Under the pieces are notes generated by a model that was not told the DNA's origin, did not search any database, and was given only the letters and a program-made list of their open reading frames with translations. A DNA stretch of 64,000 nucleotides from Halarcobacter sp. (lineage in GTDB: Bacteria > Campylobacterota > Campylobacteria > Campylobacterales > Arcobacteraceae), in assembly GCA_048571215.1 (NCBI GenBank), contig CP182352.1, positions 3,424,001 to 3,488,000 on the forward strand. The letters run 5' to 3'. Every line of letters begins with the position of its first letter. The first letter of the stretch is position 1. The position numbers and the translations under genes are program-made. This document shows, piece after piece, positions 41,700-64,000 of this stretch.

Positions 41700-42440
41700 T
41701 TGGATTTACAAAATTATATACTTAGTCCTGATTCTTTGATAATTGAGGCATTAAAAAAGATAGATGAAAATAAACGGGGTTTTTTACTTGTATGCCTTGA
41801 CAAAGAGGTTATTGGTATTACGACTGAAGGTGAAATAAGAAGATATTTAATAAATGGTGCAACTTTAGAAAATAAAATACCATATTCTAAAAATTTTATT
41901 TTTATTCGAAATAATGATTCTTTTTTAGAACTTTTTAAATGTTTTAAATCTGAAAAAATCAATTTTGTTCCTATTTTAGATCAAAATAATTTATTAATTG
42001 AAATTGTTTCAAAAAAACAATTTCATGGATTACTTTTAAAAGATATTGAATATAATATGGCAAAATTACCTGAAATGGATGAGAATGAGATAGATTTTGA
42101 AATATTTGAGAGACCTTGGGGTTTTTATAAAACTACACTTCTTGCTAAACATGTACAATCAAAGATTATTACAGTTTTTCCAAAAGGTGAATTGAGTCTT
42201 CAAAAACATAAAAGAAGAGAAGAACATTGGATAATAATAAAGGGTGAAGGTAAAATAATACTTGAGGATTCTATTTTGGAAGTTCAGCAAGGAAGGTATA
42301 TTTATATTCCAAAGGGATGTAAACATAAAGTTATAAATAGTTCTTACACAGATAATTTGATATTCGCAGAGGTACAGTTAGGGGACTATTTTGGTGAAGA
42401 TGATATTATAAGGTATGAGGATAAATATGGGAGAGTTTAA
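41700..42440 (+). CDS. CBS-pair plus cupin protein (type II phosphomannose isomerase C-terminal-like domain)
   Basis: N-terminal CBS pattern (EALKKIDEN..GF, GITTEGEIRR); RPWG, LSLQKHKRREEHW, IPKGCKH, EVQLGDYFGEDDIIRYEDKYGR; AGGAG RBS with TTG start. Confidence 0.87.
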   Translation: MDLQNYILSPDSLIIEALKKIDENKRGFLLVCLDKEVIGITTEGEIRRYLINGATLENKIPYSKNFIFIRNNDSFLELFKCFKSEKINFVPILDQNNLLIEIVSKKQFHGLLLKDIEYNMAKLPEMDENEIDFEIFERPWGFYKTTLLAKHVQSKIITVFPKGELSLQKHKRREEHWIIIKGEGKIILEDSILEVQQGRYIYIPKGCKHKVINSSYTDNLIFAEVQLGDYFGEDDIIRYEDKYGRV

Positions 42441-43321
42441 TGGCATTTAAGTTTGATTATAAAGAACCCAAAGTGGTTGCAGAAATAGGTTGTAATCATA
42501 TGGGTGACTTTGAAATAGCAAAAGAATTAATAGATTTAGCAAAACAATCAGGTTCAAAATATGTAAAGTTTCAAAAAAGAAATAATAAAGAGCTTTTAAC
42601 AAAAGAACAATATAACGCTCCCCATCCTGTTCCTGTAAACTCATATGGAAAAACTTATGGTGAACATAGAGAGTTTCTAGAGTTTACAAAAGAACAACAT
42701 AGAGAATTAAAAGAGTATAGTGATTCTATTGGCATGGCATATTCCACTTCAGTATGGGATGTTACTAGTGCTAAAGAGATGTTAGAATTTAATCCAGAGT
42801 TTTTAAAAGTACCTTCTGCTTGTAATAATAATTTTGAGATGCTAAGAATCTTAAGAGACGATTATAAAGGGCAAGTTCAACTATCTATTGGAATGACAAG
42901 TAGAAAAGAGGTTGAAGAGATTGTAAAGTTTTTTGAGCAAACAAATCAAGCAAAATCGAGACTTTTAATATATTCTTGCACTTCAGGGTATCCTGTACCT
43001 TTTGAGGATGTATCTTTATTAGAGATAAATTATTTGTATGATAATTATGAAGATAGAATATGTGAAATAGGATTCTCTGGACACCACTTAGGTATAGCAA
43101 TTGATATTGCAGCATATACTCTAGGAGCAAGATGGATTGAACGTCATTTTACCAAAGATATAAACTGGAAGGGGACAGATCATTCTGCATCATTGATGCC
43201 AGATGGATTAAGAAGACTAAATAGAGATTTAACTGCGACATATAAGTCTTTACATAAGAAAAAAGAGGATATCTTACCTATAGAGCAAGTACAAAGAGAT
43301 AAATTAAAAAATAGAAAGTAA
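42440..43321 (+). CDS. NeuB-family nonulosonate(-9-phosphate) synthase lacking the SAF domain
   Basis: AEIGCNH, VKFQKR, CTSGYP, GFSGH, IERHFT, GTDH; only 293 aa. Confidence 0.92.
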   Translation: MAFKFDYKEPKVVAEIGCNHMGDFEIAKELIDLAKQSGSKYVKFQKRNNKELLTKEQYNAPHPVPVNSYGKTYGEHREFLEFTKEQHRELKEYSDSIGMAYSTSVWDVTSAKEMLEFNPEFLKVPSACNNNFEMLRILRDDYKGQVQLSIGMTSRKEVEEIVKFFEQTNQAKSRLLIYSCTSGYPVPFEDVSLLEINYLYDNYEDRICEIGFSGHHLGIAIDIAAYTLGARWIERHFTKDINWKGTDHSASLMPDGLRRLNRDLTATYKSLHKKKEDILPIEQVQRDKLKNRK

Positions 43322-43377
43322 AATAAGCTTTTGTAAAGATAAAAAGTATATAAAAGAGATGGAAGTAAGGAAGACTA

Positions 43378-44547
43378 ATGAATATTGCATTTATCCCTTT
43401 AAGGTGTGGAAGTAAATCAATACCTTTTAAAAATATAAAAAATTTTTGTGGAAAACCACTTGTATATTGGAATTTAAAGGCTATAGAAGAATCAAAAAGT
43501 GTAGATATAGTTTATATTGCAACAGATTGCAAAGAGGTAATTGATACTATTAACAGTTTTTGTTTTAAAAAAGTTGTTATTTATAAAAGAGACCCTATTA
43601 ATGCAAGGGATATTTCTCCCACAGAGGATGTAATGTTGGAGTTTTTGGAAAAAAGAAAACAAGATAATGAAGACTACTTTTTATTGGTTCAAGCAACCTC
43701 TCCAATAACACAATCATATGATTTTGATAATGCTATAAAACAGTTGAAAAATTCAAAAAAAGATTCATTATTGACTGTTGTAAATGAAAAAAGATTTTTT
43801 TGGAATAAAGATGGCACGCCTATAAATTATGACTATAAAAATAGACCAAGAAGACAAGATTTTGAAGGTTTTTATCTCGAAAATGGGGCTTTTTATATAA
43901 ATAAGGTGAAAAATATTTTAAGAGATAAAAACAGACTTTCAGGTGAGATTGAATTATATGTTATGAATGATTATACTTCAATCGAGATAGATGAACCTCT
44001 TGATTGGCATATAGCAGAAAGTTATATGCAAAATCATATATTATCAAAAGAAGAGATAAAGCTAGAAAGAAAAATAAAACTATTTTTATCAGATGTTGAT
44101 GGAACTTTGACAGATGCAGGGATGTATTATGGAGAAAATGGGGAAGAGTTAAAAAAGTTTAATACCCATGATGGAAAAGGGTTTGAACTTTTACGTGAAA
44201 AGGGAATAAAAACTGGTTTAATTACAAGTGAAAAAACAAAGATTGTAGAGAATAGAGCAAAAAAATTAAAAATCGATTATTTATATCAGGATGTTAAACA
44301 TAAAGGTAAACTAAAAGTTGCTAAAGAGATATGTAAAAAAGAGGGAATAAGTCTAGAAGAGGTAGCGTATATCGGGGATGATATAAATTGTAAAGAGTTA
44401 TTAGAACAAGTAGGAGTATCCGCTTGTCCTTCGAAGTCATTAAGTGAGATTAAAGAATTGTATAGTATAATTAAATTAACTCAATCTGGCGGAAATGGTG
44501 CAGTAAGAGAGTTTATTGATTTATTAATACAAAAGAGATATATATGA
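43378..44547 (+). CDS. Fused acylneuraminate cytidylyltransferase and KdsC-type HAD phosphatase
   Basis: N-terminal IPLRCGSKSIPFKN, QATSP, ENGAFY, EIDEPLD; C-terminal DVDGTLTD, KKFNTHDG, YIGDDINC, GGNGAVREF. Confidence 0.93.
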   Translation: MNIAFIPLRCGSKSIPFKNIKNFCGKPLVYWNLKAIEESKSVDIVYIATDCKEVIDTINSFCFKKVVIYKRDPINARDISPTEDVMLEFLEKRKQDNEDYFLLVQATSPITQSYDFDNAIKQLKNSKKDSLLTVVNEKRFFWNKDGTPINYDYKNRPRRQDFEGFYLENGAFYINKVKNILRDKNRLSGEIELYVMNDYTSIEIDEPLDWHIAESYMQNHILSKEEIKLERKIKLFLSDVDGTLTDAGMYYGENGEELKKFNTHDGKGFELLREKGIKTGLITSEKTKIVENRAKKLKIDYLYQDVKHKGKLKVAKEICKKEGISLEEVAYIGDDINCKELLEQVGVSACPSKSLSEIKELYSIIKLTQSGGNGAVREFIDLLIQKRYI

Positions 44548-46187
44548 GTAGTGAACAACTTCAAATACAAACAGAGCTTTCTAATTTGATTCAAGAAGAT
44601 TTTATAAATGCTGCAACAACTTATTCCCAAAATAATCAATTAGATAGACAACAAGTTTTAACACTAATTCAAGATATCACTTTGTTAAAAAAATATAGTG
44701 TTGCATATATTCATAATAATGAGTTTAATGAAGTTATAGATGTTTTTAAAGAGGAATTAAAAAATTCAATTTATCCATATGATATTGCATTTGTAATTGC
44801 AATTGAGTATCTACAAAATAGTAAGAATATAGATTTTTTACAAAAATTTTTTGTAGAGATTTTTTTAAGAACTCCTAAAGAGTTATTTCTTGATGTATTT
44901 TCAATTTTTAATATTTTATGTGGCAGTGTAAAAGAACTGTATACTTATTTTATCGAATATGTTTTTAATAATAAGTTTTTATTATTGGATGAAAATATGC
45001 AAATTGATTGTTTATATAAAGCATGGAACTTATCTTTACAAGTTTATCATGATAATGAAGCTTCACAGTTTGCATACAATGAGTTAAAACACCTATTTCA
45101 AAATGCCTTAAATTATCAAAAAACAGAAGTTGCTTTTTGGTTATACTACACTCCTTTACACTATTTTAATTCAGGAACTCATGCAAATAAACATGAAGCT
45201 AATCAACGTTTTCAGGATGAGATTGAAAAACCATTAGAAAAATATATTAAAAATCATATTATTCCAAAATATAAAATTACTCCAAATAAAAAGAAAGTGA
45301 AAGATTCTTCAAAGAAAAAAGTTGCCTTTGTAATGCAAAGGATTATAAGACACTCTACAGTGAAAGTTTTGTATTATTTGATGGAATCAATTATGAAAAA
45401 ACAACATGAAAACTACGAGTTTGTCTTATATGACTTAGCTTTCCCTGAATCTGGAGGAAGTGATGTTGTATTTATAAAAGAGTTTGAAAAACTTGGGCTA
45501 AGATATGTAAATTTACATGAAAAAATATTTAATAATACAAGTGAAACTTATTCTTTACTTGAAAAATGTATAAAGAGTAGAGAAATTTTAATAGAAGATG
45601 ATATTGATATATTTATTGGTTTACATACAAGAGTTGAGTATATGTTTTTATATCTTACAAGAACTGCATCAGAACAAATATATTGGTATCATGGAAGTAA
45701 TGTAGAATATGATGTTGAAGGCATTGATAAAAGAATTACACATAGTAGTATTCCAGAAAAATCAAATTTTGAAATGAAGAAGTTTTTTATATCAAAAGAA
45801 TATAATGATGAAGAAAAAATGGAGTTTGAAAAAGAGGAAAAAAAAATCAGATCTACTTATCCAGAAGATTTTGTTATATTAGGAAGTATAGGTCGATTAA
45901 TTAAAATTGATAATGATGACTATTTAGCTACAGTATGTGAAATATTAAAACAAAATCCTAATACAATATATTTAGCATGTGGTGATGGGGATAAGAGTAA
46001 TATTATTACTTTTATCAAAAAGAATGATTTAGAAGATAGATTTTATTTTCCAGGGTTTGTTAATTCAAAAATATATGGTAGAGTGATTGATATATACTTA
46101 AATACTTTTCCAGATCCTGGTGGTGAGAGTGTAAATGAGTTTGTGTCTTTAGATGAAAATAAATATGTAGTAAGTTTAATAGATTAA
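44544..46187 (+). CDS. Putative GT-B glycosyltransferase (GT41/SPINDLY-like C-terminus, helical N-terminus)
   Basis: KKVAFV...RHS, RTASEQIYWYHG, GSIGRLIKI, RFYFPG, DIYLNTFPDPGG. Confidence 0.62.
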   Translation: MSSEQLQIQTELSNLIQEDFINAATTYSQNNQLDRQQVLTLIQDITLLKKYSVAYIHNNEFNEVIDVFKEELKNSIYPYDIAFVIAIEYLQNSKNIDFLQKFFVEIFLRTPKELFLDVFSIFNILCGSVKELYTYFIEYVFNNKFLLLDENMQIDCLYKAWNLSLQVYHDNEASQFAYNELKHLFQNALNYQKTEVAFWLYYTPLHYFNSGTHANKHEANQRFQDEIEKPLEKYIKNHIIPKYKITPNKKKVKDSSKKKVAFVMQRIIRHSTVKVLYYLMESIMKKQHENYEFVLYDLAFPESGGSDVVFIKEFEKLGLRYVNLHEKIFNNTSETYSLLEKCIKSREILIEDDIDIFIGLHTRVEYMFLYLTRTASEQIYWYHGSNVEYDVEGIDKRITHSSIPEKSNFEMKKFFISKEYNDEEKMEFEKEEKKIRSTYPEDFVILGSIGRLIKIDNDDYLATVCEILKQNPNTIYLACGDGDKSNIITFIKKNDLEDRFYFPGFVNSKIYGRVIDIYLNTFPDPGGESVNEFVSLDENKYVVSLID

Positions 46188-46199
46188 GAGAGAAAAAAA

Positions 46200-47165
46200 T
46201 TGAAAAAGATTATTGTACCAGAAGATTATAACTATATAGGAGCTTTTGTTTCTTTAGGATGTAATCTTAGTTGTAGTTATTGTATAAATTTAAATGAAGA
46301 GAATTCAACAAGAAAAAGTGTTTCAAGAAAGGCTATGTCAGGTAAAAATTGGGCTAAAGCAATTAATAGATTAAAAATATTAAATCTTGATTTGCCTGTA
46401 ACTTTACAAGGTGGAGAACCTACAATACACAAAGAGTTTTTTGATATTGTAAATGGTGTGGATGATGATATAAAACTTGATTTACTTACAAATATGGTTT
46501 TTGATGTGGATGAGTTTATAAACAATATTGACCCAAAAAAATTTACTAGAGAAGCTAAATATGCAGCTATTAGAGTTAGTTATCATCCTGGAGAAAATGA
46601 TATAGATGATTTAATAGCAAAAGCAAAAAAATTTGATAAAGCAGGTTTTTATATAGGTATTTATTCTGTTATGGTTCCTCAAAATCAAAAACATATTGAA
46701 GAGGTAAAAGAAAAATGCCTCAAAGAGGGTATAGACTTTAGGGTAAAAGAGTATTTAGGTTTTGATGGAAAAGAGTGGCATGGAACCTATAAATATCCTG
46801 AGGCTATTTCACAAAAAGTAGAGAAATATTGTGATTGTAAAACAACAGAACTTATAATTGCACCAAGTGGGCATGTATTTAGATGTCACTCAGACCTTTA
46901 TGAGAATAGAACACCTATAGGGCATATTTTAGACCCAAATTTTGATATAGAGCAGATACATAGACCTTGCTATGTTTTTGGTCATTGTAACCCTTGTGAT
47001 ATAAAAGTAAAAACAAATAGACATCAAATTTTTGGGCATACTTCTGTAGATATCAAAAATATTAGAGAGTTAACTGAAGAAGAAAAATTAGATTTGAAAA
47101 CTAATGAAAATTATGGTTTAGGAATCTACAATTATGAAAAAGATGAAGAGTATATAGATGGCTAA
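46200..47165 (+). CDS. Radical SAM protein with C-terminal Cys-rich (SPASM-like) domain
   Basis: CNLSCSYC, QGGEP, C-terminal CDC...RC...C-x5-CNPC. Confidence 0.92.
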   Translation: MKKIIVPEDYNYIGAFVSLGCNLSCSYCINLNEENSTRKSVSRKAMSGKNWAKAINRLKILNLDLPVTLQGGEPTIHKEFFDIVNGVDDDIKLDLLTNMVFDVDEFINNIDPKKFTREAKYAAIRVSYHPGENDIDDLIAKAKKFDKAGFYIGIYSVMVPQNQKHIEEVKEKCLKEGIDFRVKEYLGFDGKEWHGTYKYPEAISQKVEKYCDCKTTELIIAPSGHVFRCHSDLYENRTPIGHILDPNFDIEQIHRPCYVFGHCNPCDIKVKTNRHQIFGHTSVDIKNIRELTEEEKLDLKTNENYGLGIYNYEKDEEYIDG

Positions 47166-48222
47166 ATTTGACTTTGATGGACACAAACTTTTTTATCAGT
47201 TTGAAACAACGTATAAACTTTTAACTGAGCAGGACATTAATCCTGTATATATTGAGTATTCACCAGTTGGACATTGCAATCATAGATGTACTTTTTGTGC
47301 TTATGATTATATTGGTTATCAGTCAAGAAGACTTGATAAAGAAAAAACTATTCAATCAATAAAAGATTTTGCAAAGCTTGGTACAAAGGCGATGTTGTTT
47401 GCCGGGGAAGGGGAACCTTTAATCCATCCAAATATAGATGATTTTATAATAACTTGTTTTGAAAATGAAGTAAGTAGTGCTATATATACAAATGGGGCAT
47501 TACTAACTCCTAAAAGAGTGAATAAGATCTTAGATAAATTAACTTTTGTTCGTATCTCTTTTAATGCAGGTACAAAAGAAAATTATGAAGAGATACATAA
47601 AAGTGATGATTTTGAAAAAGTAGTTGAAAATCTTAAATATGCAACCAAATACAAAAAAGAACATAATCTACAAACAGATATAGGGCTTCAAATTGTTGTT
47701 TTACCTGAAAATTTACATACTATAATTGATTTAGCAAAACTAGGTCAAGAGTTAGGTGTTGATTATTTAGCAATTAAGCCTTTTGTTCAACACAATGATC
47801 AAGAAGGCTATCAGTTTTCAAAAAACTTTTCATTAGATGAGATAGAACCAGTATTGGATGAAGCAGAAAAATATAGTACAGATAGTTATAAAGTTATAGC
47901 AAGAAAAGAAGCTTTTAGAAAATATCATGACAGAACTTATAATCATTGTTTAGCATTGCCTTTATTTGGTGTGATATTAAGTGATGGAAATATGTATAGT
48001 TGTGGTCCATATTTAGACAACAAAGATTTTTGTTATGGAAATATACATGAGCAAAGTGTAGAAGAGATAGTTTTAGGTAATAAAAGAAAAGAGATATTAG
48101 AATTTGCAGCAAAAAAACTTGATTGTAAGGGACAGTGTATGCCAAACTGTAGATTAGATGCAATCAATAGAAGTCTTTGGGAATTAAAAAACCCAACAGT
48201 TAAGCATATAAACTTTATTTAG
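47158..48222 (+). CDS. Radical SAM protein with SPASM/twitch domain
   Basis: CNHRCTFC, GEGEPL, TNG, C...DGNMYSC...YGNI...CKGQCMPNC. Confidence 0.93.
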   Translation: MAKFDFDGHKLFYQFETTYKLLTEQDINPVYIEYSPVGHCNHRCTFCAYDYIGYQSRRLDKEKTIQSIKDFAKLGTKAMLFAGEGEPLIHPNIDDFIITCFENEVSSAIYTNGALLTPKRVNKILDKLTFVRISFNAGTKENYEEIHKSDDFEKVVENLKYATKYKKEHNLQTDIGLQIVVLPENLHTIIDLAKLGQELGVDYLAIKPFVQHNDQEGYQFSKNFSLDEIEPVLDEAEKYSTDSYKVIARKEAFRKYHDRTYNHCLALPLFGVILSDGNMYSCGPYLDNKDFCYGNIHEQSVEEIVLGNKRKEILEFAAKKLDCKGQCMPNCRLDAINRSLWELKNPTVKHINFI

Positions 48223-48230
48223 GATAATAG

Positions 48231-49028
48231 ATGCAAGATATGAAAAAAATAGCAGTAAATATTAGAAAAAATATTTTACGTATTGCAAATAGTTCAAAAG
48301 GTCCTCACACAGGAACAGCATTGTCATGTGTTGATATTTTAGCTTCACTTTATTTTAAGCATTTAAAAATAGAAACGTATAAAGATGAAAATAGAGATAT
48401 TTTTATTATGAGTAAAGGTCATGGGGCAATGGCTTTATATTCAACACTTTATGAAAAAGCTATTTTATCTAAAGATGATTTTTTTAGTTATTATCAAAAT
48501 AATGGAAAACTTCCTGCTCACTTAGACAAAAATACAAATGAAGCAATAGAGGTTTCAAGTGGTAGTTTAGGGCATGGATTGCCACAAGCATTGGGTTTTG
48601 CATATTCTAAAAAATTAAAAAATCTAGATTCCAAAGTATATGTTTTGATGGGTGATGGAGAAACTCAAGAGGGTTCTATTTGGGAGGCTGCAATGTTAGC
48701 ACCTAAAATGGGCTTAGATAACCTTACTGTATTTATAGATAGAAATAATCTTCAAGGATATGGAAGACCATCTGAGTTAGTTTCTTTTGAATCATTAGAT
48801 GAAAAGTTTAAAAGTTTTAATTGGGATGTATATAGAGTAGATGGACATGACTTAAACGCATTAGATGAAGTAATATCAAAAACATCACAAAATCCAAAAG
48901 TTATTATTTGCGATACTATAAAAGGTAAAGGTGTTTCATTTATGGAAGATGAAATGAAATGGCATTATTTTATAGTAACCGATGAGTTTATGAATCAAGG
49001 GATAAAAGAGTTAGAGGAAAGCTTATGA
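48231..49028 (+). CDS. Split transketolase, N-terminal ThDP-binding subunit
   Basis: SKGHG, SGSLGHGL, GDGETQEG...WEAA...DRN, VDGHD, TIKGKG. Confidence 0.95.
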   Translation: MQDMKKIAVNIRKNILRIANSSKGPHTGTALSCVDILASLYFKHLKIETYKDENRDIFIMSKGHGAMALYSTLYEKAILSKDDFFSYYQNNGKLPAHLDKNTNEAIEVSSGSLGHGLPQALGFAYSKKLKNLDSKVYVLMGDGETQEGSIWEAAMLAPKMGLDNLTVFIDRNNLQGYGRPSELVSFESLDEKFKSFNWDVYRVDGHDLNALDEVISKTSQNPKVIICDTIKGKGVSFMEDEMKWHYFIVTDEFMNQGIKELEESL

Positions 49029-49918
49029 GAAATAGTGCTGCGAAAATAGTATATGAATATTGTAAATCAAACAAAGATGGCTTTTTAATCTCTGGGGATG
49101 CTGGTTTTGGAGTATGGGAAAAGTTTCAAGAGGAATTACCAACTCAGTATATAAATACAGGAGTAAATGAAGCAGCAATGACAGGTTTAGCAGCTGGTTT
49201 AGCACTAAGTGGTCATAAGGTTTTTATTTATAATATTATTCCATTTTTATTAATGAGAAATTATGAACAAGTAAGAGTAGATATTGCTTATCAAAATCTT
49301 CCAGTGATTTTAATAGGTATTGGGTCTGGAGTTACTTATGCACCTGCAGGGATGACTCACTATTCTATTGAAGATATTACAATAGCTAAAAGTATGCCAA
49401 ATCTAAATATAATATCACCTTCAGACCCTATCCAAGTAGAAAAAGCAATGCATTATGCGATTGCTTCAGATAATCCTACTTTTATAAGAATTTCAAGAAG
49501 TGGTGAACCAAAAGTATTTGATGACAATATTGATATCACTAAACCAATCATAATAAAAGATGGAAATTCAAAAGCTATTATATTTCATGGTTCAATTGTT
49601 GATGAAGTTTTAGAAGCATCAAAAGAGCTAGATGATTGTGCAATAATCTCTTTTCCTATGATTGCACCTATTGATGAAAAAGAAGTAGCAACAATATTAG
49701 AGAAATATAATGAAATTTTTGTTGTAGAAGAACATTTTAAAGATGGTGGATTAGGGACTATATTAAGTGATTTAACAATACAACTTGGAATTTTTGTAAA
49801 AATAAAAAAATTAGGTATACCAAATCATTACATTCATAAAATTGGGAATTGTGATTATCTTAGAAAAAAGTATGGTATAGATAAAGAATCAATTATAAGA
49901 GAGATAAATCATGGGTAA
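49025..49918 (+). CDS. Split transketolase, C-terminal subunit
   Basis: GVNEAAM, RNYEQVR, GMTHYS, VEEHFKDGGLG. Confidence 0.94.
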   Translation: MRNSAAKIVYEYCKSNKDGFLISGDAGFGVWEKFQEELPTQYINTGVNEAAMTGLAAGLALSGHKVFIYNIIPFLLMRNYEQVRVDIAYQNLPVILIGIGSGVTYAPAGMTHYSIEDITIAKSMPNLNIISPSDPIQVEKAMHYAIASDNPTFIRISRSGEPKVFDDNIDITKPIIIKDGNSKAIIFHGSIVDEVLEASKELDDCAIISFPMIAPIDEKEVATILEKYNEIFVVEEHFKDGGLGTILSDLTIQLGIFVKIKKLGIPNHYIHKIGNCDYLRKKYGIDKESIIREINHG

Positions 49919-50573: not shown

Positions 50574-50587
50574 GTTAGGAGTAAATT

Positions 50588-53531: not shown

Positions 53532-53576
53532 TCTATTTAAATATAAGAAAAGCAATTAGTAGCTTAGGGGTTAAAA

Positions 53577-55274: not shown

Positions 55275-56901
55275 TAAACTAGGGATACACTTTATTGTTC
55301 CTGTGTGGGGTGAAAGTTATACTGAACTTTTTCTTAAGTTTTGTCTACCCAGTCTTCTAGCTTCAAAGAACTTACCCTTTTTAGATAATAAGAATAATAT
55401 TTTTACAATTTGTACAGAAGAAGCTCAAAGTGAAACAATTATTGAAAATAAATACTATAAAAAGTTAACTGAACTCATGGAGGTAAACCTAGAGTTTATT
55501 GATGATATATTATTGCAAGAAGAAGCTTACAGTAGTGAGTTTAGGTGTCAAAATCATTTTAAGAAAATGACAAAAGCACATAATAGAGCAATCAAATTAT
55601 CGAAAGATAGAGAGATTATTTATTCATTTATTATGCCTGATAATATTTTTTATGATGGGTCTATTTCTAATGTAGTTAAACTTATTGATGATTCAACACA
55701 GGTTGTTTATGCATATGGTTTACATATTAATGAAGAAGAATTGTATGAAAGTTTAGAACAACTTGATGTAATTGATGAAGGGATAATTAACATTGATGGA
55801 TTTAGTTTGGCTTCTTTATCATCAAAAAGATTACATATAGCCTCATCAAAGTCTTTAATAGACTCTAAACCTTTCTTACCAAATGGTAATCTATTTTTGA
55901 AAGAAAAAAATCAGATGTTATTAAAGTTATGTTATCTACATCCATTTTTGGTTCTCCCTAAAAAAAAGGGAATGTTTATACCTCCTGATTCTACTTTTGA
56001 TGATGGAGATTATGTCAATAAGTCTAGTACTAAAAATAAACAAAAGAAGATTTTAGATTCTAGAGTTTTTTTTATGTATTCAATTGATAGTAAAGAGAAT
56101 AAAAAAGATTTGTCAAAATATTATGTTAGTATGTTTAATATTTTTGAACAAGCTTCACGTATTAAGAATATAGATGTCCAATATCAAGATAATTTAGATT
56201 CTACATGTATTCTTTATTTTAATGAAGAAAAGTTAAATGAAAAAACTTTAGAAGAATTTAACTCTTTGGGTATGATGTTACTTTTTTTAATAAAAAATAG
56301 TGATTATATTCCCAATATTCAGGATTTAAAAGTTCAAATAATCACATCGAATAACCCTTTTACAACTTATTTAGATATCCTTCAAAATTTTATAAAAATT
56401 TTGAAGAAAATAGTCAAGTCAGATATGGATAAAAATATTAAGATTTATTATGAAAATGTATTATATAGTTTTGAACAATTAAAAGAGAATTCAAGTATTG
56501 AATCTAATCCTTTTAAGGTATTAAAATTGATAGAAAACCTCTTTGATATATTAAATTTTAATCAAGAAACAAATATATTTCAGATTAAAGAACTTCAAGA
56601 AAAAATAAAGAAAGTTGAAACAATCTTAGTCAAACATACAAAAGTGTCTTTATATGCTGCAGGAGATGATACTCTTATATTATGTTCATTATTATCTTCC
56701 TTAAAAGGTATTGAAACTATTTATGATGAGAATATAGAAAAAGTTGGAACTAAAATAAAGGGTATTAAAGTTCAACCTTTTATAGAAGAGAAGATAAAAA
56801 ACGAGGTAATTATTATATCTTCTTCTTTGCATGAAGATAAAATTTATGAAAAATTAGTAAAATATGATGGATTGACATTATATAAATTGAATAAGATATA
56901 A
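55267..56901 (+). CDS. Uncharacterised glycan-locus protein (possible GT-A-like N-terminus, C-terminal Rossmann-like module)
   Basis: IHFIVPVWGESY..LF...CLPSLL, MPD; C-terminal VSLYAAG...IYDEN..KVG..IKGIKV. Confidence 0.5.
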   Translation: MYDKLGIHFIVPVWGESYTELFLKFCLPSLLASKNLPFLDNKNNIFTICTEEAQSETIIENKYYKKLTELMEVNLEFIDDILLQEEAYSSEFRCQNHFKKMTKAHNRAIKLSKDREIIYSFIMPDNIFYDGSISNVVKLIDDSTQVVYAYGLHINEEELYESLEQLDVIDEGIINIDGFSLASLSSKRLHIASSKSLIDSKPFLPNGNLFLKEKNQMLLKLCYLHPFLVLPKKKGMFIPPDSTFDDGDYVNKSSTKNKQKKILDSRVFFMYSIDSKENKKDLSKYYVSMFNIFEQASRIKNIDVQYQDNLDSTCILYFNEEKLNEKTLEEFNSLGMMLLFLIKNSDYIPNIQDLKVQIITSNNPFTTYLDILQNFIKILKKIVKSDMDKNIKIYYENVLYSFEQLKENSSIESNPFKVLKLIENLFDILNFNQETNIFQIKELQEKIKKVETILVKHTKVSLYAAGDDTLILCSLLSSLKGIETIYDENIEKVGTKIKGIKVQPFIEEKIKNEVIIISSSLHEDKIYEKLVKYDGLTLYKLNKI

Positions 56902-56915
56902 GAAAGGTAATAAGT

Positions 56916-58409
56916 ATGAGTCTGCTAGAAAAAGTTAGCTATTTAATGACAGCAAAAAAATTAAAAGTAGAAGGTCAACCTGATTTAGTAAATAAAATAT
57001 CTTATTATATATCAAATTATTTAAATCCTAATATAAACTTTATTGAAGGTGAATCAAATATATTAGTTATTAAAGATATCACTACTTTTGAAGATTATGT
57101 AAATAAAATTGAAGATGATAATTGTATCTATGTTATTGATTTGTCAATTGTTTCAATTATTTATAATAAATTTCCATTGCTTTATATTCAATTTGAAGAG
57201 AAAATGAAAGAGTATCTAAAAAATAATGACATTGATAAAAAATTGATTAAGTTTATATATGCAGATATTTTTAAAGAAGTTATTTTAGAAAGCTTTGAAA
57301 TATTCAGTATAAATACAGATAATAAAAATTTTAAAATTGATAAACAACAAGTTAGGTGTGCTTGGCCATGGTACAATATGTACATTCGTGGAAATACTTT
57401 GGAGTGGTGTTGTGGTTATTCCCATACTCAAGAAAAACAGACTTGGGATGAAAATACAGGTAAACTTAATATATTAAAAGAATGGAGTAGTGAACCTTTC
57501 CAGAAAGTAAGAGATGTACTTACAACAAAAGATACTGAAGCTAATTGTAGTAAGTGTCATAATTTATATTTTGAACAGTTTTTTCCTTATATCTTTGATT
57601 TTTTATCTCTTAACAAAGAACAACAAGAAAATGTAAATAAAGTAATTTATAACTATTGGATGAAGAATAAAGTTTTAGATTCATATCCTATTCGATATGA
57701 GATTATTACTAGTTATAAATGTAATATTAATTGTATTATGTGTAATCAAGAGGAGTACAATAAGTTAAAATATGAACTACCTGTTTCTGTTATTTTAGAT
57801 AACAAGAAAAACTTTCAAAAAGCAGTAGATATAAGTCTTTTAGGAGGTGAATTTTTTGCTATAAAGAATGCAAAAGAAATATTAGAAATTTTTGCTTCGA
57901 AAGATTTTGAGAATGTAAGGTTCTTATTTATTACTAATGGAACTTTAATTCATAGATATTTTGACCAATTAAAAAAGTTGAAGAATATTATAATTAGTTT
58001 TAGTTTAGACACTATAGGTGAAAATTATGAGTATATTAGAGAAGGTGCAAACTGGAATAAAGTGGAAAAAAATATTTTAGATTTTCTTGAGATGTATAAA
58101 GAGGAAAAGATTAAAAATCCTTCTTTAAATTGGCAAATTCAATCACCTTCAATTATGATGAAAAGTAGTGTTAAAAGCTTATTAGAATATGTTAAGTGGT
58201 GTATTGAACATAATATACAACCAGCATTTATTAAGTTAGAACCTTATGGTGTTAATGTGGATCAAGAGGATATATTCAGAAATAAGAGATTATTAAATGA
58301 AATAGAAGAGTGGGAAAACATTTTTGAAGAAAGTTTATTTTTACTAAAAGAAAAACATTTTTATCACTCGTTTAATACACTAAATGAAATTTATAAACAG
58401 TTGAAATAA
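56916..58409 (+). CDS. Radical SAM protein with SPASM/twitch-like domain placed N-terminal of the core
   Basis: CAWPW...WCC...CSKC precedes CNINCIMC, LGGEFF, ITNGT, FSLD, YEYIREGANW. Confidence 0.9.
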   Translation: MSLLEKVSYLMTAKKLKVEGQPDLVNKISYYISNYLNPNINFIEGESNILVIKDITTFEDYVNKIEDDNCIYVIDLSIVSIIYNKFPLLYIQFEEKMKEYLKNNDIDKKLIKFIYADIFKEVILESFEIFSINTDNKNFKIDKQQVRCAWPWYNMYIRGNTLEWCCGYSHTQEKQTWDENTGKLNILKEWSSEPFQKVRDVLTTKDTEANCSKCHNLYFEQFFPYIFDFLSLNKEQQENVNKVIYNYWMKNKVLDSYPIRYEIITSYKCNINCIMCNQEEYNKLKYELPVSVILDNKKNFQKAVDISLLGGEFFAIKNAKEILEIFASKDFENVRFLFITNGTLIHRYFDQLKKLKNIIISFSLDTIGENYEYIREGANWNKVEKNILDFLEMYKEEKIKNPSLNWQIQSPSIMMKSSVKSLLEYVKWCIEHNIQPAFIKLEPYGVNVDQEDIFRNKRLLNEIEEWENIFEESLFLLKEKHFYHSFNTLNEIYKQLK

Positions 58410-60017
58410 ATGCATTATAAATATATACAGTCATGGTTGATACATTTTAAGAATTTTTTTTTAAATCAAGAAATTTTTTCAAATCGTTATAGTGCTTTTT
58501 TTTATGAGTTATTTCATTTATCTTCTATGAAAAACAAAAAAATTGCATTTATTCCTTCAGGTAATTTTATAAAAGAATTCTCAGAACAGTTTCAGTCCCC
58601 TAATTTTTTTTATTTTGATGATGTGAAAAAGGATATGGATAATTTTTATTTATTTGATAGCAATAAATTTTACGAAATGGATTATATAATAATTACATCA
58701 AAAAAATTTGAAAAAATAATTATTGAGAAAATCCCTAAAAATTTATATTTCAAAGTATATAAATTTGGAGATTTTGTCGAACTTGATAGGTTTGATAATT
58801 TAATTCATAAAACAATTTCAAATTATCAATTTTTAAAATTTTTAATTTTTTTTAAAAATTTTCATAGGTCAAATATTCAGTCTTTAGTAGATAAAAATAA
58901 AAGAATTATGTTTGTACGACAAAACTATTATTCTGATGTAAATGATAAGGTCAATATTATTAAAGATGTTTTAGATTGTAATGTTATTGTTGAAAATAAT
59001 CAAGTAAATAAATCAATTAAAGTTAATTATGGACATATAAATAGTAGATTAAAAGATATAACAATACTTTTTTTAAAACTTAAAAGAAATGAAAAAGCTA
59101 TTATATTCTTTATCCCTATTATAATGGATGGATATGGATTATCTTATTGTTTGAAAAAACATTTTAAAAATGTACAGATGATTTTAAATATGACTGATTA
59201 TATATGGCATTTATGTTCATATAAATATAGAGAACTATTAGCTTTTAATCATAATTGGAGTTTAGATTATGTAGAGTCAGAGTATTACTTTGCAAAACTT
59301 ATACAAAGTCAACATATAGTTGATGTAATAATCCATAGGCATGGAGAACTTCCTTTTTCATGGGCAAAAAATTATCAAACTCCAAACCTTTATTTTCCTC
59401 CTTATCAAAGACAATATAGTTTAAAGCCCACCGTGTCAAATGGAAAAAAATTATTATTCATTGGTACAATTCATTCTAAAAATTATGATAATAAACTTTA
59501 TAGTTCTATTTTTTTAGAGGAGTTGTTTAAAAAATTTATTGATAAAGGATTTAGTATAGATTTATATTATTCAAAAGGTTATGAACAACATGCTTTAGCT
59601 TATAGTAAATATATAAATTCAGATAAATTTAAAACTTTTGAAGGAAAATCACTAGACATATTATTACCAGAGATTAATGGTATTTATGACTGGGGATTAA
59701 TTTTAAATGATTTAAGCAAGGATATTGAAAAAATAAATCAGAATCTTTTATATACTATACCTACAAAAATTTTTACATATGCAGCAATAAATTTGCCTAT
59801 ATTATATATTGGAGATGAAAAAGATTGTTCGAAATATTTAATAGAAGCAGCAGGAATAGGAAAAGTAATTAATGGAGATTTAAATAATTTAAGTCATATT
59901 ATAAATGATACTGGAATAAATGTTATTAAAGATAACATAGTTACATTTAATAAACATAATAATTTAATATCTAAAAAAGACAAATTAGAAGCTTTTATAA
60001 GGGAGTTTATATTATGA
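58410..60017 (+). CDS. Putative GT-B glycosyltransferase with N-terminal Rossmann-like module
   Basis: KKIAFIPSG...FDD...DYIIITS module; LLFIGT...YDWGLI...IPTKIFTYAAINLP, a GT4-like P-x-K-x-x-x-Y motif. Confidence 0.58.
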   Translation: MHYKYIQSWLIHFKNFFLNQEIFSNRYSAFFYELFHLSSMKNKKIAFIPSGNFIKEFSEQFQSPNFFYFDDVKKDMDNFYLFDSNKFYEMDYIIITSKKFEKIIIEKIPKNLYFKVYKFGDFVELDRFDNLIHKTISNYQFLKFLIFFKNFHRSNIQSLVDKNKRIMFVRQNYYSDVNDKVNIIKDVLDCNVIVENNQVNKSIKVNYGHINSRLKDITILFLKLKRNEKAIIFFIPIIMDGYGLSYCLKKHFKNVQMILNMTDYIWHLCSYKYRELLAFNHNWSLDYVESEYYFAKLIQSQHIVDVIIHRHGELPFSWAKNYQTPNLYFPPYQRQYSLKPTVSNGKKLLFIGTIHSKNYDNKLYSSIFLEELFKKFIDKGFSIDLYYSKGYEQHALAYSKYINSDKFKTFEGKSLDILLPEINGIYDWGLILNDLSKDIEKINQNLLYTIPTKIFTYAAINLPILYIGDEKDCSKYLIEAAGIGKVINGDLNNLSHIINDTGINVIKDNIVTFNKHNNLISKKDKLEAFIREFIL

Positions 60018-60733
60018 ATAAGCATGATTACATTAAAATAGTAGATTCATTGATTAAAAGGAAAAGTGCAACTATAGTTGATGGAATTCAATATCGAAAA
60101 AACTTAGGAATCAAAGAAAAATATTTAATTAGTTCTGATACTTTGATTGATCATAAACATATTGAGTTAGTAGTAAATATTGTTTTGAATCTACCTGATA
60201 CAAAATATATTAGTGTTGATACTAATATAAATCTTAAAAATTATGTGTTAACTTTATCAAAAAATGATCAAGAGAGATTTTTATTTCTTGAAGAAGTTAA
60301 TAGATTTAAATATATTAAATGTTTAGATTTTTATTTATATTTCTTTGAATACGATGCTTTTGAGTTTTTATATGATTATGATGTAATGCTGATAAATGTA
60401 TTAGATGAATCATATCATAAAACAAGAGAAGAAATTGCAGTAGAATACTCTAAGAATCATGAAGAGTTTGATAAAAAACTTTTTAATAAAGAAAACTACC
60501 TTAAATATTGTATGGATTTTTATGGGAAATATGCAGGATTTAATATTAAAGATATCCAGTTTTTATATGAACATAAAGAATATAAGGGGTATAAATTTAT
60601 TGCAAAATTTATTGAGTTTTCGATGTATGATAATATTTTATACACAAGACAATTAAATCTTCATCGATTAAATAAAATTAAATTAAGAAAATCTCATTCG
60701 AAAGAGGAATTATGCTTTTTAGATATATTATAA
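60014..60733 (+). CDS. Hypothetical protein
   Basis: 239-aa ORF overlapping the upstream stop (ATGA); no recognised motif. Confidence 0.6.
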   Translation: MNKHDYIKIVDSLIKRKSATIVDGIQYRKNLGIKEKYLISSDTLIDHKHIELVVNIVLNLPDTKYISVDTNINLKNYVLTLSKNDQERFLFLEEVNRFKYIKCLDFYLYFFEYDAFEFLYDYDVMLINVLDESYHKTREEIAVEYSKNHEEFDKKLFNKENYLKYCMDFYGKYAGFNIKDIQFLYEHKEYKGYKFIAKFIEFSMYDNILYTRQLNLHRLNKIKLRKSHSKEELCFLDIL

Positions 60734-60761
60734 ACAAATTAAAAAGTTATAAGGTTAAATA

Positions 60762-62354
60762 ATGAATAAAAATGTATGTGCTGCATGTAATGGAAAAGAG
60801 TTTCAAGTTGTAACTTCTCAATTTAAAAAAGTAAAGAATGAAAAATTTATAGTTGAAGATGAATCTCTTTATCAATGTAATAAATGTGGGACGTTAAATG
60901 CTTTACCAATAAAAGAGTTTGATTTTGAAAAAGATGGAGATAGGTATTATAGTCAAATGAGACTTTCCCATGAGGAGAAAGACGGATTATTAGAGCATAT
61001 CAAATTATCGCAAGTTCCTAAATATGATTTTTTAAGAGATAATGTTTTAAGTAAAAAATTCAAAAATTATAAAAAGTGGTTAGATGTTGGTTCTTGTGGT
61101 TATGCAACAACTTTTAGTAAGTTTGATTTTACAACTATAGAACCTGATAAGCAAATGGTTTCTTTAGCAAAAGAGTTATTTGATTGTAATAAGATATTTT
61201 GCTCAGATTTGATTAGTTTTAATTGTTTAGAGAAGTTTGATGCAATTTTATTTAATCATTCATTTTATTGTGTAGCTAATACAACAGATACTTTACAAAA
61301 AATTAATCAATTATTAAATAATCAGGGTATAGTTTTAATTGGAATTGGACATATTTTTATGGATGCAGTTTTTACGCAAGATGCTATAATAAGATCTGTA
61401 GAGGATATTTTTGTAGGGGAAACTCATAAGGTGTATTATTCAAAAGAGAGTTTGGAGTACCTTTTTCAACGATTTTCATATACTTTAATTGATGATTTAA
61501 TAGTGAAACATAATATTCCTGTACATGGATCGTGCTCAAGATATCTTGTTTTTAAAAAAGGTAATGTTTATATTGATGAAAAGTTAATAAAAAAATCTAA
61601 AATAAAGATTGAAGAAACACTAAAATATTATCTTCAAAAGTTTGAAGTGGATGCAAAAAAACAGTTTAAAAAATTTAATAATAAAAAAACAGTTTTTATT
61701 GGAAATAAAAATTTATTTTTTGAGGCTTTTGAGTACTTTGATCTAAAAAATATTTTTGGTTTTATTTCTTATGGTGAAGATTTAAATGATGTTCAGATAA
61801 ATAATGTAAAATTTCTTAGCATTGACTATTTAAAGAGTAAAGATATTGAAAATATTGTAATCCTAGATTTAAAATATACTAATGATATTTTACAATTATT
61901 GGAAAATAAACTGGACGTATATCATAGTATAAATATACTTTCAAGAACAATTACTTCTAACACACTTTTTAGTGAAATAAAATCTAGAAGAAGAGTTAAT
62001 AATGATTTCTTTTTTCAAACATATAGTACATTTTTAAATAAAATATATACAAAAATAAAAGAAGCAATAAAAGACAAACAAGAAAAAGTTGCAATTTTTG
62101 GTACAGCAAATGCAGGAAAAATTGCTTATGAGGTTTGCAAAAAGCTAAATTTAGAAATAGAATGTTTTATTGATGATTTTAATAAGAGTGAATTATATGG
62201 TAATACTGAAATCCCAATTATTTCTAGAAATAAATTTTTAAAAGAAAAGTCAAATATTGTAAGTATAATTATTAAAGGTCCTAATCAAAAAGGTTTGGAT
62301 GAAGTTCAATTAAATGGTATTAACATTATAGAGGTCGAGAATTATGCTGATTAA
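60762..62354 (+). CDS. Zn-ribbon plus class I methyltransferase with C-terminal Rossmann-like modules
   Basis: CAAC...CNKC, WLDVGSCG, IEPD, FDAILFNHSF; C-terminal KVAIFGTANAG...FIDD. Confidence 0.75.
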   Translation: MNKNVCAACNGKEFQVVTSQFKKVKNEKFIVEDESLYQCNKCGTLNALPIKEFDFEKDGDRYYSQMRLSHEEKDGLLEHIKLSQVPKYDFLRDNVLSKKFKNYKKWLDVGSCGYATTFSKFDFTTIEPDKQMVSLAKELFDCNKIFCSDLISFNCLEKFDAILFNHSFYCVANTTDTLQKINQLLNNQGIVLIGIGHIFMDAVFTQDAIIRSVEDIFVGETHKVYYSKESLEYLFQRFSYTLIDDLIVKHNIPVHGSCSRYLVFKKGNVYIDEKLIKKSKIKIEETLKYYLQKFEVDAKKQFKKFNNKKTVFIGNKNLFFEAFEYFDLKNIFGFISYGEDLNDVQINNVKFLSIDYLKSKDIENIVILDLKYTNDILQLLENKLDVYHSINILSRTITSNTLFSEIKSRRRVNNDFFFQTYSTFLNKIYTKIKEAIKDKQEKVAIFGTANAGKIAYEVCKKLNLEIECFIDDFNKSELYGNTEIPIISRNKFLKEKSNIVSIIIKGPNQKGLDEVQLNGINIIEVENYAD

Positions 62355-63216
62355 TGAATTTGGATTATATGGATTAATTGGTCGTGCAGGTACTACTTTA
62401 ATTAGGAATCAGTTAGGAAAATATAATAATATAATGTGTTTAACAACTGATATGCAGATAAAACTTTTAATGAATAATTATACTGAAATTAAAATTTCAA
62501 CCTATATAATTAATGAATATAGTGATTATGATATAAAGAATCAATTTTCTAAATATAAATTTGATTATAAACAGGTAGATAAATTATTTTATAAATTGCC
62601 ATTATACCAAGTGTTAAATAAAAGCTCTTTAGAGTATTGTAATCGAATTAAGCCAATATTTGTTATTAGGAACCCAGTACATACTGTTTATTCATCTTCA
62701 AAGCAATCTTTTTTGAATGATTCCGAAGATTTGGATATTATTAAAGAAATGATTTTAGAATCATGCACATTACTAAAAATCAAAATGCCAAAAGTGTATT
62801 TAGAAGATTTTAAAAGATATTCTAATGATATTTTACTAAAAAATGCTGTTTTGTTTAAAATGAGTTTTTTTTTATATCAAGAATATTTTAAAAAGTTCTA
62901 TAAAGATAATATTCTATTTTTATGTTTTGAGGATTTTTTAGATAATCCTTATGAAAATATGAAATTGATATTGGATTTCTCAAATGTACAATATAATAAA
63001 GATCAAATAAATAAAAAATTAAATGAATTGTTTTACGATGAGGTTATAGAAGAGGGAGGTATTCTTATGTCTGAGAATTTAAAAAAATCAAAAAAAATTA
63101 TTATTAATGATAAGTTTGAAAGAATTTTTAAGTATTTAGAAAATGAAATGAACTACTTTGGATATTCTTTAGATAATACTATTTATCCTAAATCAAAGAT
63201 TCTGCAAGAAATTTAA
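62344..63216 (+). CDS. Sulfotransferase-like protein
   Basis: GLIGRAGTTL (5'-PSB-like loop), VIRNPVHTVYS (3'-PB-like), FEDFLDNP...ILDF. Confidence 0.7.
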   Translation: MLINEFGLYGLIGRAGTTLIRNQLGKYNNIMCLTTDMQIKLLMNNYTEIKISTYIINEYSDYDIKNQFSKYKFDYKQVDKLFYKLPLYQVLNKSSLEYCNRIKPIFVIRNPVHTVYSSSKQSFLNDSEDLDIIKEMILESCTLLKIKMPKVYLEDFKRYSNDILLKNAVLFKMSFFLYQEYFKKFYKDNILFLCFEDFLDNPYENMKLILDFSNVQYNKDQINKKLNELFYDEVIEEGGILMSENLKKSKKIIINDKFERIFKYLENEMNYFGYSLDNTIYPKSKILQEI

Positions 63217-63228
63217 AAGGAAAAAAAG

Positions 63229-63897
63229 ATGACAAAAGAACCACAATATGGGATATTTATTGATGAATTTAAAGAAAATGGTGCTGTGATATTAGGTCCG
63301 ATGTCCTCTTATATGGCTCGTCATGATCCTAAAATGATGGCAATTAAGCTATCTAGATATAAGTTTATTGCGAAAATGCTTTCTGGAAAAAATGATGTAT
63401 TAGAAATAGGCTGTGGTGATAGTTTTGGTAGTACAATAGTAAAAGATGAAGTGAAAAACTTAACTTGTACTGATTTTGATCCTTTGTGGATTAATTATTG
63501 TAAGCAGATAAATAATAATGAGATTAAATTCAAATTATTGAATGTGATTGATGATAAAATAGATGAAAAGTATGATGCCGTTTTTTCTATGGATGTTTTT
63601 GAACATATTTTACCAAAAGATGAAAAGAAGTTTATTCATGGAGTGATTAATTGTTTAAAAGATAGGGATAGTGTATGTATTATTGGCATTCCTAGTTTAG
63701 AAAGTCAAAACTATACTTCTCAAATTAATAAAGAAGGACATGTAAATTGTAAAACAGGAGATGATTTAAAGAGTTTATTATTAGAATATTTCAATAATGT
63801 ATTTATTTTTTCTTCAAATGATGAAGTAGTTCATACTGGATATTTTAAAATGGCACATTATTTAATAGCGGTTTGTTGTGGAGTTAAAAGATTATAA
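63229..63897 (+). CDS. Class I SAM-dependent methyltransferase
   Basis: RYKF, VLEIGCG, YDAVFSMDVFEHI, IGIP, GHVN. Confidence 0.9.
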   Translation: MTKEPQYGIFIDEFKENGAVILGPMSSYMARHDPKMMAIKLSRYKFIAKMLSGKNDVLEIGCGDSFGSTIVKDEVKNLTCTDFDPLWINYCKQINNNEIKFKLLNVIDDKIDEKYDAVFSMDVFEHILPKDEKKFIHGVINCLKDRDSVCIIGIPSLESQNYTSQINKEGHVNCKTGDDLKSLLLEYFNNVFIFSSNDEVVHTGYFKMAHYLIAVCCGVKRL

Positions 63898-63900
63898 AAT

Positions 63901-64000
63901 ATGTTATATTTTTCAGGAAGGTATTCAAATATAGTAGAAAGCTTTGAAGGTGGAGTGTCTGGAACTTTTTCTTTTAAAGAAGGTAAAGAATTTGTCAAAT
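63901..64000 (+). CDS. 5' fragment of next island gene (runs off window end)
   Basis: ATG 3 nt after the previous stop; open to the end (MLYFSGRYSNIVESFEGG...). Confidence 0.5.
   Translation, partial: MLYFSGRYSNIVESFEGGVSGTFSFKEGKEFVK

Follow-up and report, generated by a model that had tools for sequence, protein, structure and literature searches.

A radical SAM-rich island beside recA in Halarcobacter as a candidate Maf-type flagellin glycosylation system with KDN-type genes

What is assembled by the dense run of sugar genes and radical S-adenosylmethionine (SAM) enzymes beside recA in a Halarcobacter genome, and what receives the product? The stretch analyzed, hereafter the window, comprises 64,000 nucleotides of this genome (G000:C1:3424001-3488000, G000 being the source genome), and features past its end are given as window-equivalent positions, that is, the G000:C1 position minus 3424000. 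As the original prediction had stated, 20 complete co-oriented open reading frames (ORFs) occupy the + strand from 41700 to 63897, with spacings of -11 to +56 nt, and a partial one follows at the window end. The extent that it gave, 41700-64000, was too short. The partial ORF (63901), which runs on to 64830, is the first of 14 further ORFs that lead up to 80990, next to which lie three flagellin genes. Between recA and two maf genes the whole island spans 39 kb and holds 34 ORFs, with the flagellins adjoining its far end; at the near end, recA is divergent from the first island ORF across a gap of 393 nt. We consider it moderately probable that this is a Maf-type flagellin O-glycosylation island that assembles an extended glycan in the cytoplasm.

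The far end of the island carries this conclusion. Maf1 and Maf2 are the only Maf matches in the genome, both above the PF01973 and PF20157 cut-offs, and the first flagellin starts 140 nt from maf2. The central region of the flagellins holds 22-25 Ser/Thr within 65 residues, and a FHIPEP-family (FlhA-type) flagellar export gene is present in the genome. None of the 34 island products contains a hydrophobic 19-residue segment at or above 1.9, against nine such segments in a control antiporter. Flagellin is supported as the target because the island closes on the genome's only two Mafs and three flagellins and has no transmembrane product among its 34. The original prediction, which had named flagellin as the likely target and pointed downstream for flagellin or maf genes, is supported by what lies past the window.

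The same arrangement recurs across the family. From the 108 family genomes with a recA position we sampled 20 near-closed ones, and the order flagellin, maf, glycan genes, recA is present within 40 kb in 16 and over a longer stretch in two more. Because this layout holds in 18 of the 20, the position next to recA is where this family keeps its flagellin glycosylation island. In the remaining two genomes (G172 and G001), flagellin lies next to recA and maf is absent from the 40 kb. Typing of 22 synthases from the sampled islands (one further synthase, spanning two loci, was omitted) placed nine above the PseI cut-off, seven above the NeuB cut-off and six above neither. The original prediction had placed flagellin and pseudaminic acid (Pse) genes next to recA in Arcobacter butzleri; in the part of the A. 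butzleri genome paper available to us (PMC2147049), the words 'glycosylation', 'flagellin', 'maf' and 'pseudaminic' are absent, and this placement is not confirmed there.

At this site, the flagellins of G172 (L134-L135) and G001 (L144-L145) have 444 and 399 aa, against the usual 280-290 aa, with no glycan genes in 40 kb; the trend is not strict, and G104 has long flagellins plus an island. Tandem arrays reach 12 flagellins in G169 (L136-L137), seven in G055 (L140) and six in G148 (L162-L163). Unusually long Mafs of 1077 aa (G103, L128) and 1228 aa (G045, L176) form their own tree branch. Far from the island, G000 encodes a fourth flagellin-family protein of 282 aa (G000:C1:1058970-1059818; L185:8970-9818, - strand), 48% identical to the island flagellins, which may or may not be a substrate of the island.

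Radical SAM genes, counted by hidden Markov model (HMM) in 33 sampled islands, some of them incomplete stretches, number zero in 15 islands, seven in three and up to eight in G000. These eight, of 32 PF04055 matches in the genome by profile search, lie within 39 kb of 3.61 Mb, a density far above chance. We label them rS1-rS8, the methyltransferases MT1-MT4 and four divergent genes orf13, orf14, orf16 and orf17; these labels are our own. The four radical SAM enzymes, split transketolase, short-chain dehydrogenase/reductase (SDR), four methyltransferases and sulfotransferase that had been read in the window were all matched by Pfam.

Which sugar would the Mafs receive? The island nonulosonate is probably ketodeoxynonulosonic acid (KDN), as judged from the first genes. 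The NeuB-family synthase is the only match of its kind in the whole genome and scores below both the PseI and the NeuB/LegI cut-offs (120.9 versus 340 and 190.9 versus 400 bits); its PDB matches are distant NeuBs (best E 5e-27). No PseB lies above the cut-off in the genome (best 52 versus 408 bits). A pathway to Pse or legionaminic acid (Leg) was rejected on these grounds, in agreement with the earlier remark that no pse or leg genes are visible in the window. The phosphatase domain is closest to PDB 3E81, which we take to be the Bacteroides KDN-9-phosphate phosphatase (E 2e-41, the next family reaching 7e-29). Retained in it are the equivalents of E56 and K67, presumably the specificity markers of that enzyme (Ala in 4HGQ/4HGR); two compared KdsC-type chains are without both, and a separate KdsC-like gene lies elsewhere in the genome. 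For the synthetase domain the nearest structure is 9T4Z 'PpNeuA' (E 3e-34), which we infer from PMC6200933 to be the Prymnesium cytidine monophosphate (CMP)-KDN synthetase. That paper shows a CMP-KDN route from mannose 6-phosphate (Man-6-P) in Bacteroides thetaiotaomicron and Prymnesium parvum. The island resembles this route in having a synthase, a probable KDN-9-phosphate-type phosphatase and a CMP-synthetase, with Man-6-P as the predicted substrate; it differs in that phosphatase and synthetase are fused and linked to Maf and flagellin, and here the pathway is read from the genes. The nonulosonic acid pathway of the original prediction stands in its NeuB and cytidylyltransferase-HAD genes, but these are probably KDN-type and not generic. 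We think it quite likely that the first three genes would take Man-6-P and phosphoenolpyruvate to KDN-9-phosphate, KDN and finally CMP-KDN.

Among 183 other family genomes, 14 have close copies of the synthase (75-88%). In 11 of the 14 a copy lies in a maf/flagellin stretch, with a second copy at another locus in one of these 11; the other three have theirs on contigs too short to judge context. In G088 a second KDN cassette is present away from the flagellin island. Many KDN islands also have a methyltransferase or TylF-type O-methyltransferase between synthase and synthetase (for example L019:6036-6884 and L033:6817-7479), and G000 has none there.

Maf1 follows this nonulosonate type. It falls in a six-member clade (Shimodaira-Hasegawa-like approximate likelihood-ratio test, SH-aLRT, 100) that contains only Mafs of KDN islands, from three genera, with non-KDN Mafs of the same genera outside. 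Simple co-transfer is a weaker explanation, because 35 kb separate Maf1 from the synthase and because G158, which shares many of the intervening middle genes (66-94%), shares neither the synthase type nor the Maf clade (its Maf is only 39% identical and falls outside). It is likely that Maf1 would, before export, put KDN on Ser/Thr residues of the short flagellins encoded alongside it. The Maf donors named in the available part of 10.1101/2020.06.03.131540 are Pse, Leg, N-acetylneuraminic acid (Neu5Ac) as well as 3-deoxy-D-manno-octulosonate (Kdo), and 'KDN' does not appear there. In the open-access literature we found no paper on KDN on flagellin and no Ser/Thr-O-KDN linkage, a targeted search yielding only the Prymnesium paper.

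Beyond the first sugar, two genes usually bracket the variable middle of the island, one encoding a GT41-fold glycosyltransferase and the other a DUF354 protein. The first, a 547-aa product which the original prediction had called GT41-like, does have the SPY/OGT/NGT (GT41) fold: comparison with OGT, SPINDLY and NGT structures gives Z about 14 and a root-mean-square deviation of 5.7-7.8 over 276-338 residues at 11-16% identity. PF00534 is its sole Pfam match, with no GT41 Pfam match, and in the Atlas listing a cluster with GT41 on 48% of its members stands at rank 11 (0.90). The GT41-fold gene is found in 20 and DUF354 in 21 of 184 family genomes; 19 have both, 162 neither and three only one, these exceptions being drafts 90-95% complete. 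DUF354 itself gives a weak PDB match to UDP-N-acetylglucosamine 2-epimerase (E 0.028), and the best 20 of 45 literature matches hold nothing on the family. Aeromonas flagellin keeps just a single Pse derivative when Fgi-1 is lost (PMC7874193), which gives a precedent for extension on a nonulosonate; by analogy, the pair may represent the start of an optional extension. With the chances about evenly balanced, the GT41-fold protein and DUF354 would start this extension on the nonulosonate, and the GT9, the two GT2s and the divergent glycosyltransferases would lengthen the chain.

The protein could instead be an FlmG-like transferase that works alongside the Mafs and itself transfers CMP-KDN, or else a neutral first sugar, to flagellin or to some other protein made in the cytoplasm, in which case the island would make two separate glycans. 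Its helical N-domain followed by GT-B is as described for FlmG (10.1101/2022.03.25.485807), and its top solved structural matches, being OGT, SPINDLY and NGT-type protein glycosyltransferases, fit a direct flagellin transferase equally well. The GT41-fold tree (12 rows) places all seven KDN copies on one branch (SH-aLRT 99), which the DUF354 tree (12 rows) does not, and in L047 flagellin, maf and a GT41-like gene are adjacent. We nevertheless regard this alternative as unlikely. The island has two Mafs of its own, of which Maf1 already goes with the KDN type; the occurrence of the GT41-fold gene in so few family genomes, nearly always together with DUF354, suits an optional extension step. The KDN branch may reflect linkage only, since the gene abuts the KDN genes. 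The likeness to FlmG is to the published description; a complex prediction of the protein with flagellin gave no verdict (score 0.00).

The middle of the island can be followed through rS3, for which 2254 of 3332 candidate proteins are homologous at E<=1e-60. We compared 78 GTDB loci, three of which belong to the family genome set as well. They come from Campylobacterota, Geobacteraceae, Alphaproteobacteria, Omnitrophota, Planctomycetota, Chlorobium and others. In the 55 loci of at least 15 kb, MT1 is found in 48 and the transketolase in 44. An acetolactate-synthase-like (YerE-like) gene occurs in six of the 78, all six without transketolase. In G152 the transketolase slot is taken by an E1 alpha/beta pair, accompanied by heptose genes. 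Genes for hldE/gmhA are in none of 14 GT9 loci, versus 29 of the 41 other long loci, and an NAD-dependent SDR is in none of 15 rS1 loci, versus 23 of the other 40. The module has two mutually exclusive front ends, GT9 with rS1 or GmhA/HldE-like with SDR. Among 34 sampled family islands, 12 have the transketolase, five with rS1 and GT9 and seven with gmhA, the two types never occurring together; an rS2/rS6-type gene is present in each of the 12, close rS3 and MT1 in six, and in the four gmhA-type cases scanned a GT4-like gene takes the place of GT9. G000 is of the GT9 type, with an HldE-like gene elsewhere in the genome (464 bits, below the cut-off of 521) and, also elsewhere, a separate transketolase-like gene.

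These thiamine-enzyme swaps and heptose-gene front ends point to a C-branched, heptose-derived sugar as the module's product. YerE-like, E1-type and split-transketolase enzymes are the three thiamine classes reviewed as forming branched sugars (PMC12247030). The pathways treated there (YerE/yersiniose, ErwE, alpha-KADH2, and the miharamycin/amipurimycin split transketolases) likewise pair an SDR and sugar genes with a thiamine enzyme for C2 transfer, and all three classes fill the same slot among our homologous loci; in contrast to those systems, split transketolases of the island type are found across many phyla, in loci for surface glycans that also carry heptose genes and radical SAM enzymes. 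More tentatively, and a little short of even odds, GT9 would introduce heptose drawn from housekeeping ADP-heptose synthesis, rS1 would perform the redox step done elsewhere by the NAD-dependent SDR to give a keto sugar, and the split transketolase would add a two-carbon branch. That rS1 stands in for the usual SDR partner, which this island lacks, is suggested by co-occurrence only. The product would then be tailored by rS2, rS3, rS5 and rS6, the SDR, and the methyl-, sulfo-, carbamoyl- and aminotransferases. What we observe is gene content, linkage and co-occurrence, and every reaction and the target are read from them.

The four tailoring radical SAM proteins (rS2, rS3, rS5 and rS6) are paralogues with four invariant C-terminal Cys. 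They share with DesII, BlsE and BtrN the superfamily branch, by profile and fold, and the CxxxCxxC motif plus four C-terminal Cys, but identity is 14-19% and peptide maturases score equally. The rS3 reaction is left unassigned because SkfB, DesII, BlsE and SuiB rank alike in its profile and fold searches. A peptide-maturation role was set aside: the neighbours are sugar genes and the island has no transporter, although short precursor ORFs were not searched for. Of five distant genomes with the module, two have a flagellin-family gene some 24-25 kb away from it and two have it on other contigs than flagellin; because it is present in G186, which is without any flagellin match, the rS3 module is not flagellin-specific. 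NCBIfam 'sporadic carbohydrate cluster' genes are frequent in the rS3 loci (for example L112:2454-3317 and L094:9577-9975), with the TIGR04324 type in 14 and the TIGR04323/LIC12192 family in 15 of the 78. Such genes may be linked to Leptospira O-antigen loci. The open-access literature gave no relevant paper that joins transketolase, radical SAM and heptose with Leptospira O-antigen.

Rather than branching a keto sugar, the thiamine enzyme might lengthen a sugar chain, through an octulose or nonulose phosphate to a higher-carbon nucleoside diphosphate sugar, as exemplified by lincomycin and apramycin. Aldose acceptors are the normal transketolase reaction, and the GmhA/HldE-like partners could act on an octose because they diverge from the housekeeping genes (the L102/L112 references are 29-34% identical to those of G000 and 24-42% to the family-island copies). 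This route is rather unlikely: the YerE-like and E1-type enzymes in the same slot are reviewed as branching keto sugars, and the GT9 variant found here has neither isomerase nor kinase for a new ketose phosphate.

It is improbable that the synthase makes another nonulosonate, such as Neu5Ac-9-phosphate from N-acetylmannosamine 6-phosphate. Databases call its close homologues N-acetylneuraminate synthase, the genome has a WecB epimerase, and the phosphatase, although best matched by the NCBIfam KDN-9-phosphate phosphatase model NF058599, reaches 168.5 bits where the cut-off is 180. Those database names look automatic, however, and each of the 16 other close copies that we examined has a CBS/Man-6-P isomerase homologue ahead of the synthase. 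WecB, the only 2-epimerase in the genome, is non-hydrolysing (526 bits versus 115 for NeuC), profile comparison found no hydrolysing NeuC in the genome, and the structures nearest to the phosphatase and the synthetase are ones that we read as KDN-pathway enzymes.

Quite improbable is that the middle genes are a lodged lipopolysaccharide (LPS) or surface-polysaccharide cassette and that flagellin carries only a simple nonulosonate: GT9 is an LPS heptosyltransferase family, the module occurs in G186, the second KDN cassette of G088 stands outside a flagellin island and the island is a mosaic, but Pfam and the hydrophobicity scan found no Wzx/Wzy flippase or polymerase, ABC exporter, Kps gene or other membrane protein among the island products, KpsC/S has no match in the genome, separate glycan loci with a flippase-like gene lie elsewhere, and the 12 module-bearing family islands have it beside recA, maf or flagellin. 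A capsule or O-antigen locus was rejected for the same missing genes, and the original prediction, which saw no wzx/wzy or kps, extends in this respect to the whole island.

An important caveat to the preferred reading, a KDN-linked and extended flagellin glycan, is that several further observations weigh against it. Overall, KDN-island Mafs are scattered, with seven changes versus a shuffled mean of 11.7 (39 rows, 14 KDN; quick tree), and Mafs can be promiscuous (10.1101/2020.06.03.131540). The co-occurrence counts take in related genomes, which are not independent, so that the Fisher values are too strong, and 20-kb windows can miss genes. No sugar enzyme is singled out by the rS3 searches. 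As far as the available part of the 2025 review (PMC12247030) goes, split transketolases of this kind are listed from Streptomycetes only and their ketone acceptance is unproven in vitro.

The remaining features are collected in the table. Of the two or three divergent glycosyltransferases originally proposed, the one at 55267 (orf14) is plausible; orf13 (53577) offers a sub-threshold hint (GT1-type Pfam score 19.9 versus 26.4 bits), with nothing usable from profile searches against PDB and Pfam, and orf16 (58410) and orf17 (60014) have no family match in Pfam or NCBIfam profile searches. A relationship between orf13 and orf16 was considered, and comparison gave no real similarity. Sulfate-activation-like genes, so read from sequence, lie beside the LPS locus at G000:C1:2071238-2075381 and could supply the island sulfotransferase. 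As a mosaic, the island has separate blocks closest to G088, L047 and G158. Compared with G088, rS1 (window 46203-47198) is 89% identical in DNA and 95% in protein, while its neighbours are at 77-80%, which suggests that rS1 was recently exchanged. A second mobile block, rS7-GT2-epimerase-rS8-DUF354 (L001:9785-15118, window-equivalent 71785-77118), is 79% identical in DNA to G158, and rS8 homologues occur in 11 of 184 family genomes. Along the gene run, G+C drops from 0.279 in the first half to 0.237 in the second, versus 0.285 for the genome, and the names of homologues indicate Arcobacteraceae. A promoter scan of the recA gap gave five sites versus 4.0 expected, and a repeat search gave AT-rich matches at chance level only, with no element ends.

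Table. Genes of the recA-adjacent island and its borders; positions past 64000 are window-equivalent.
Feature	Position	Strand	Basis
recA, left boundary	40266..41306	-	Name from sequence reading, no HMM; one close copy in 108/108 family genomes
CBS + mannose-6-phosphate isomerase cupin (putative Man-6-P supply)	41700..42440	+	PF01050 E 1.6e-26, PF00571
Short NeuB-family synthase, probable KDN-9-phosphate synthase, 293 aa	42440..43321	+	PF03102 only
CMP-nonulosonate synthetase fused to KDN-9-phosphate-type phosphatase	43378..44547	+	Closest PDB 3E81 (E 2e-40), 9T4Z PpNeuA (E 3e-34)
GT41-fold glycosyltransferase, 547 aa, helical N-domain + GT-B	44544..46187	+	Structure comparison; co-occurs with DUF354
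Radical SAM rS1, partner of GT9-like gene	46200..47165	+	PF04055; co-occurrence
Radical SAM rS2 (rS2/3/5/6 subfamily, four conserved C-terminal Cys)	47158..48222	+	Pfam, alignment
Split transketolase, N half	48231..49028	+	PF00456
Split transketolase, pyrimidine-binding + C half	49025..49918	+	PF02779, PF02780
SAM methyltransferase MT1, travels with rS3	49911..50573	+	Pfam; co-occurrence
Radical SAM rS3, widespread uncharacterised family	50588..51655	+	Homologue counts; predicted model
Classical SDR (candidate ketoreductase)	51655..52389	+	PF00106
Methyltransferase MT2	52389..53531	+	Pfam
orf13, rare conserved protein, weak GT-B hint	53577..55274	+	12 homologues; PF00534 below cut-off
orf14, GT-A-like N-domain	55267..56901	+	Atlas structure search, TM 0.48-0.53 to GT2 clusters
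Radical SAM rS4, N-terminal twitch-like	56916..58409	+	PF04055; NF033640 E 5e-27, below cut-off
orf16	58410..60017	+	35% to 416-aa ORF in G053 island
orf17	60014..60733	+	
Methyltransferase MT3	60762..62354	+	Pfam
Sulfotransferase-like protein	62344..63216	+	PF00685, 37.4 vs cut-off 22 bits
Methyltransferase MT4	63229..63897	+	Pfam
FemAB/GNAT-like ORF	63901..64830 (crosses window end)	+	
Carbamoyltransferase, rS5, rS6, DegT-type aminotransferase	64787-69758	+	
GT9, GT2, rS7, GT2, epimerase/dehydratase, rS8, DUF354	69760-77118	+	
Maf1	77128-79185	+	5MU5 match E 2e-13
Maf2	79182-80990	-	
Three flagellins, 282 aa each	81130-84628	-	

The kind of system is known. In the Maf-type islands of Aeromonas (FGI group II, PMC7874193) and Shewanella (Maf-1/Maf-2, 10.1101/2023.12.03.569772), a nonulosonate pathway, Maf and flagellins also share one locus, and extra glycosyltransferases lengthen a nonulosonate linker (a heptasaccharide in A. 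piscicola AH-3). The differences are that the predicted donor here is KDN-type and theirs Pse/Leg, that the candidate extender here has the GT41 fold and theirs is GT2, and that eight radical SAM genes and a split transketolase are present here; 'radical', 'transketolase' and 'heptose' are absent from the main text of the Aeromonas paper as available. The donor and tailoring chemistry was not found in the open-access literature, which gave no relevant paper on flagellin glycosylation with radical SAM enzymes or on Arcobacter/Arcobacteraceae flagellin glycosylation. To call the system undescribed goes too far for its kind, as Maf-type islands are known and three relatives have seven radical SAM genes at this site; it is the chemistry that we could not match to a paper.

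Taken together, these observations allow a speculative picture, doubtful as a whole, in which flagellin carries a Ser/Thr-O-KDN-linked oligosaccharide, extended by the GT41-fold/DUF354 pair and bearing a C-branched heptose made by the split transketolase after the radical SAM oxidation swap, and in which rS2, rS3, rS5 and rS6 form a new radical sugar-remodelling class, with thousands of members, for cell-surface glycans. If true, KDN would join the sugars that Mafs place on protein, and the island would provide a candidate protein O-KDN transferase. The pairing of the GT41-fold protein with DUF354 would be a first lead for DUF354, and the swap of rS1 and GT9 for SDR and GmhA/HldE predicts a specific rS1 reaction. 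Flagellin would then offer a soluble, purifiable readout for a widespread uncharacterised enzyme set, namely split transketolases together with a subfamily of radical SAM enzymes that numbers at least 2254 close members.

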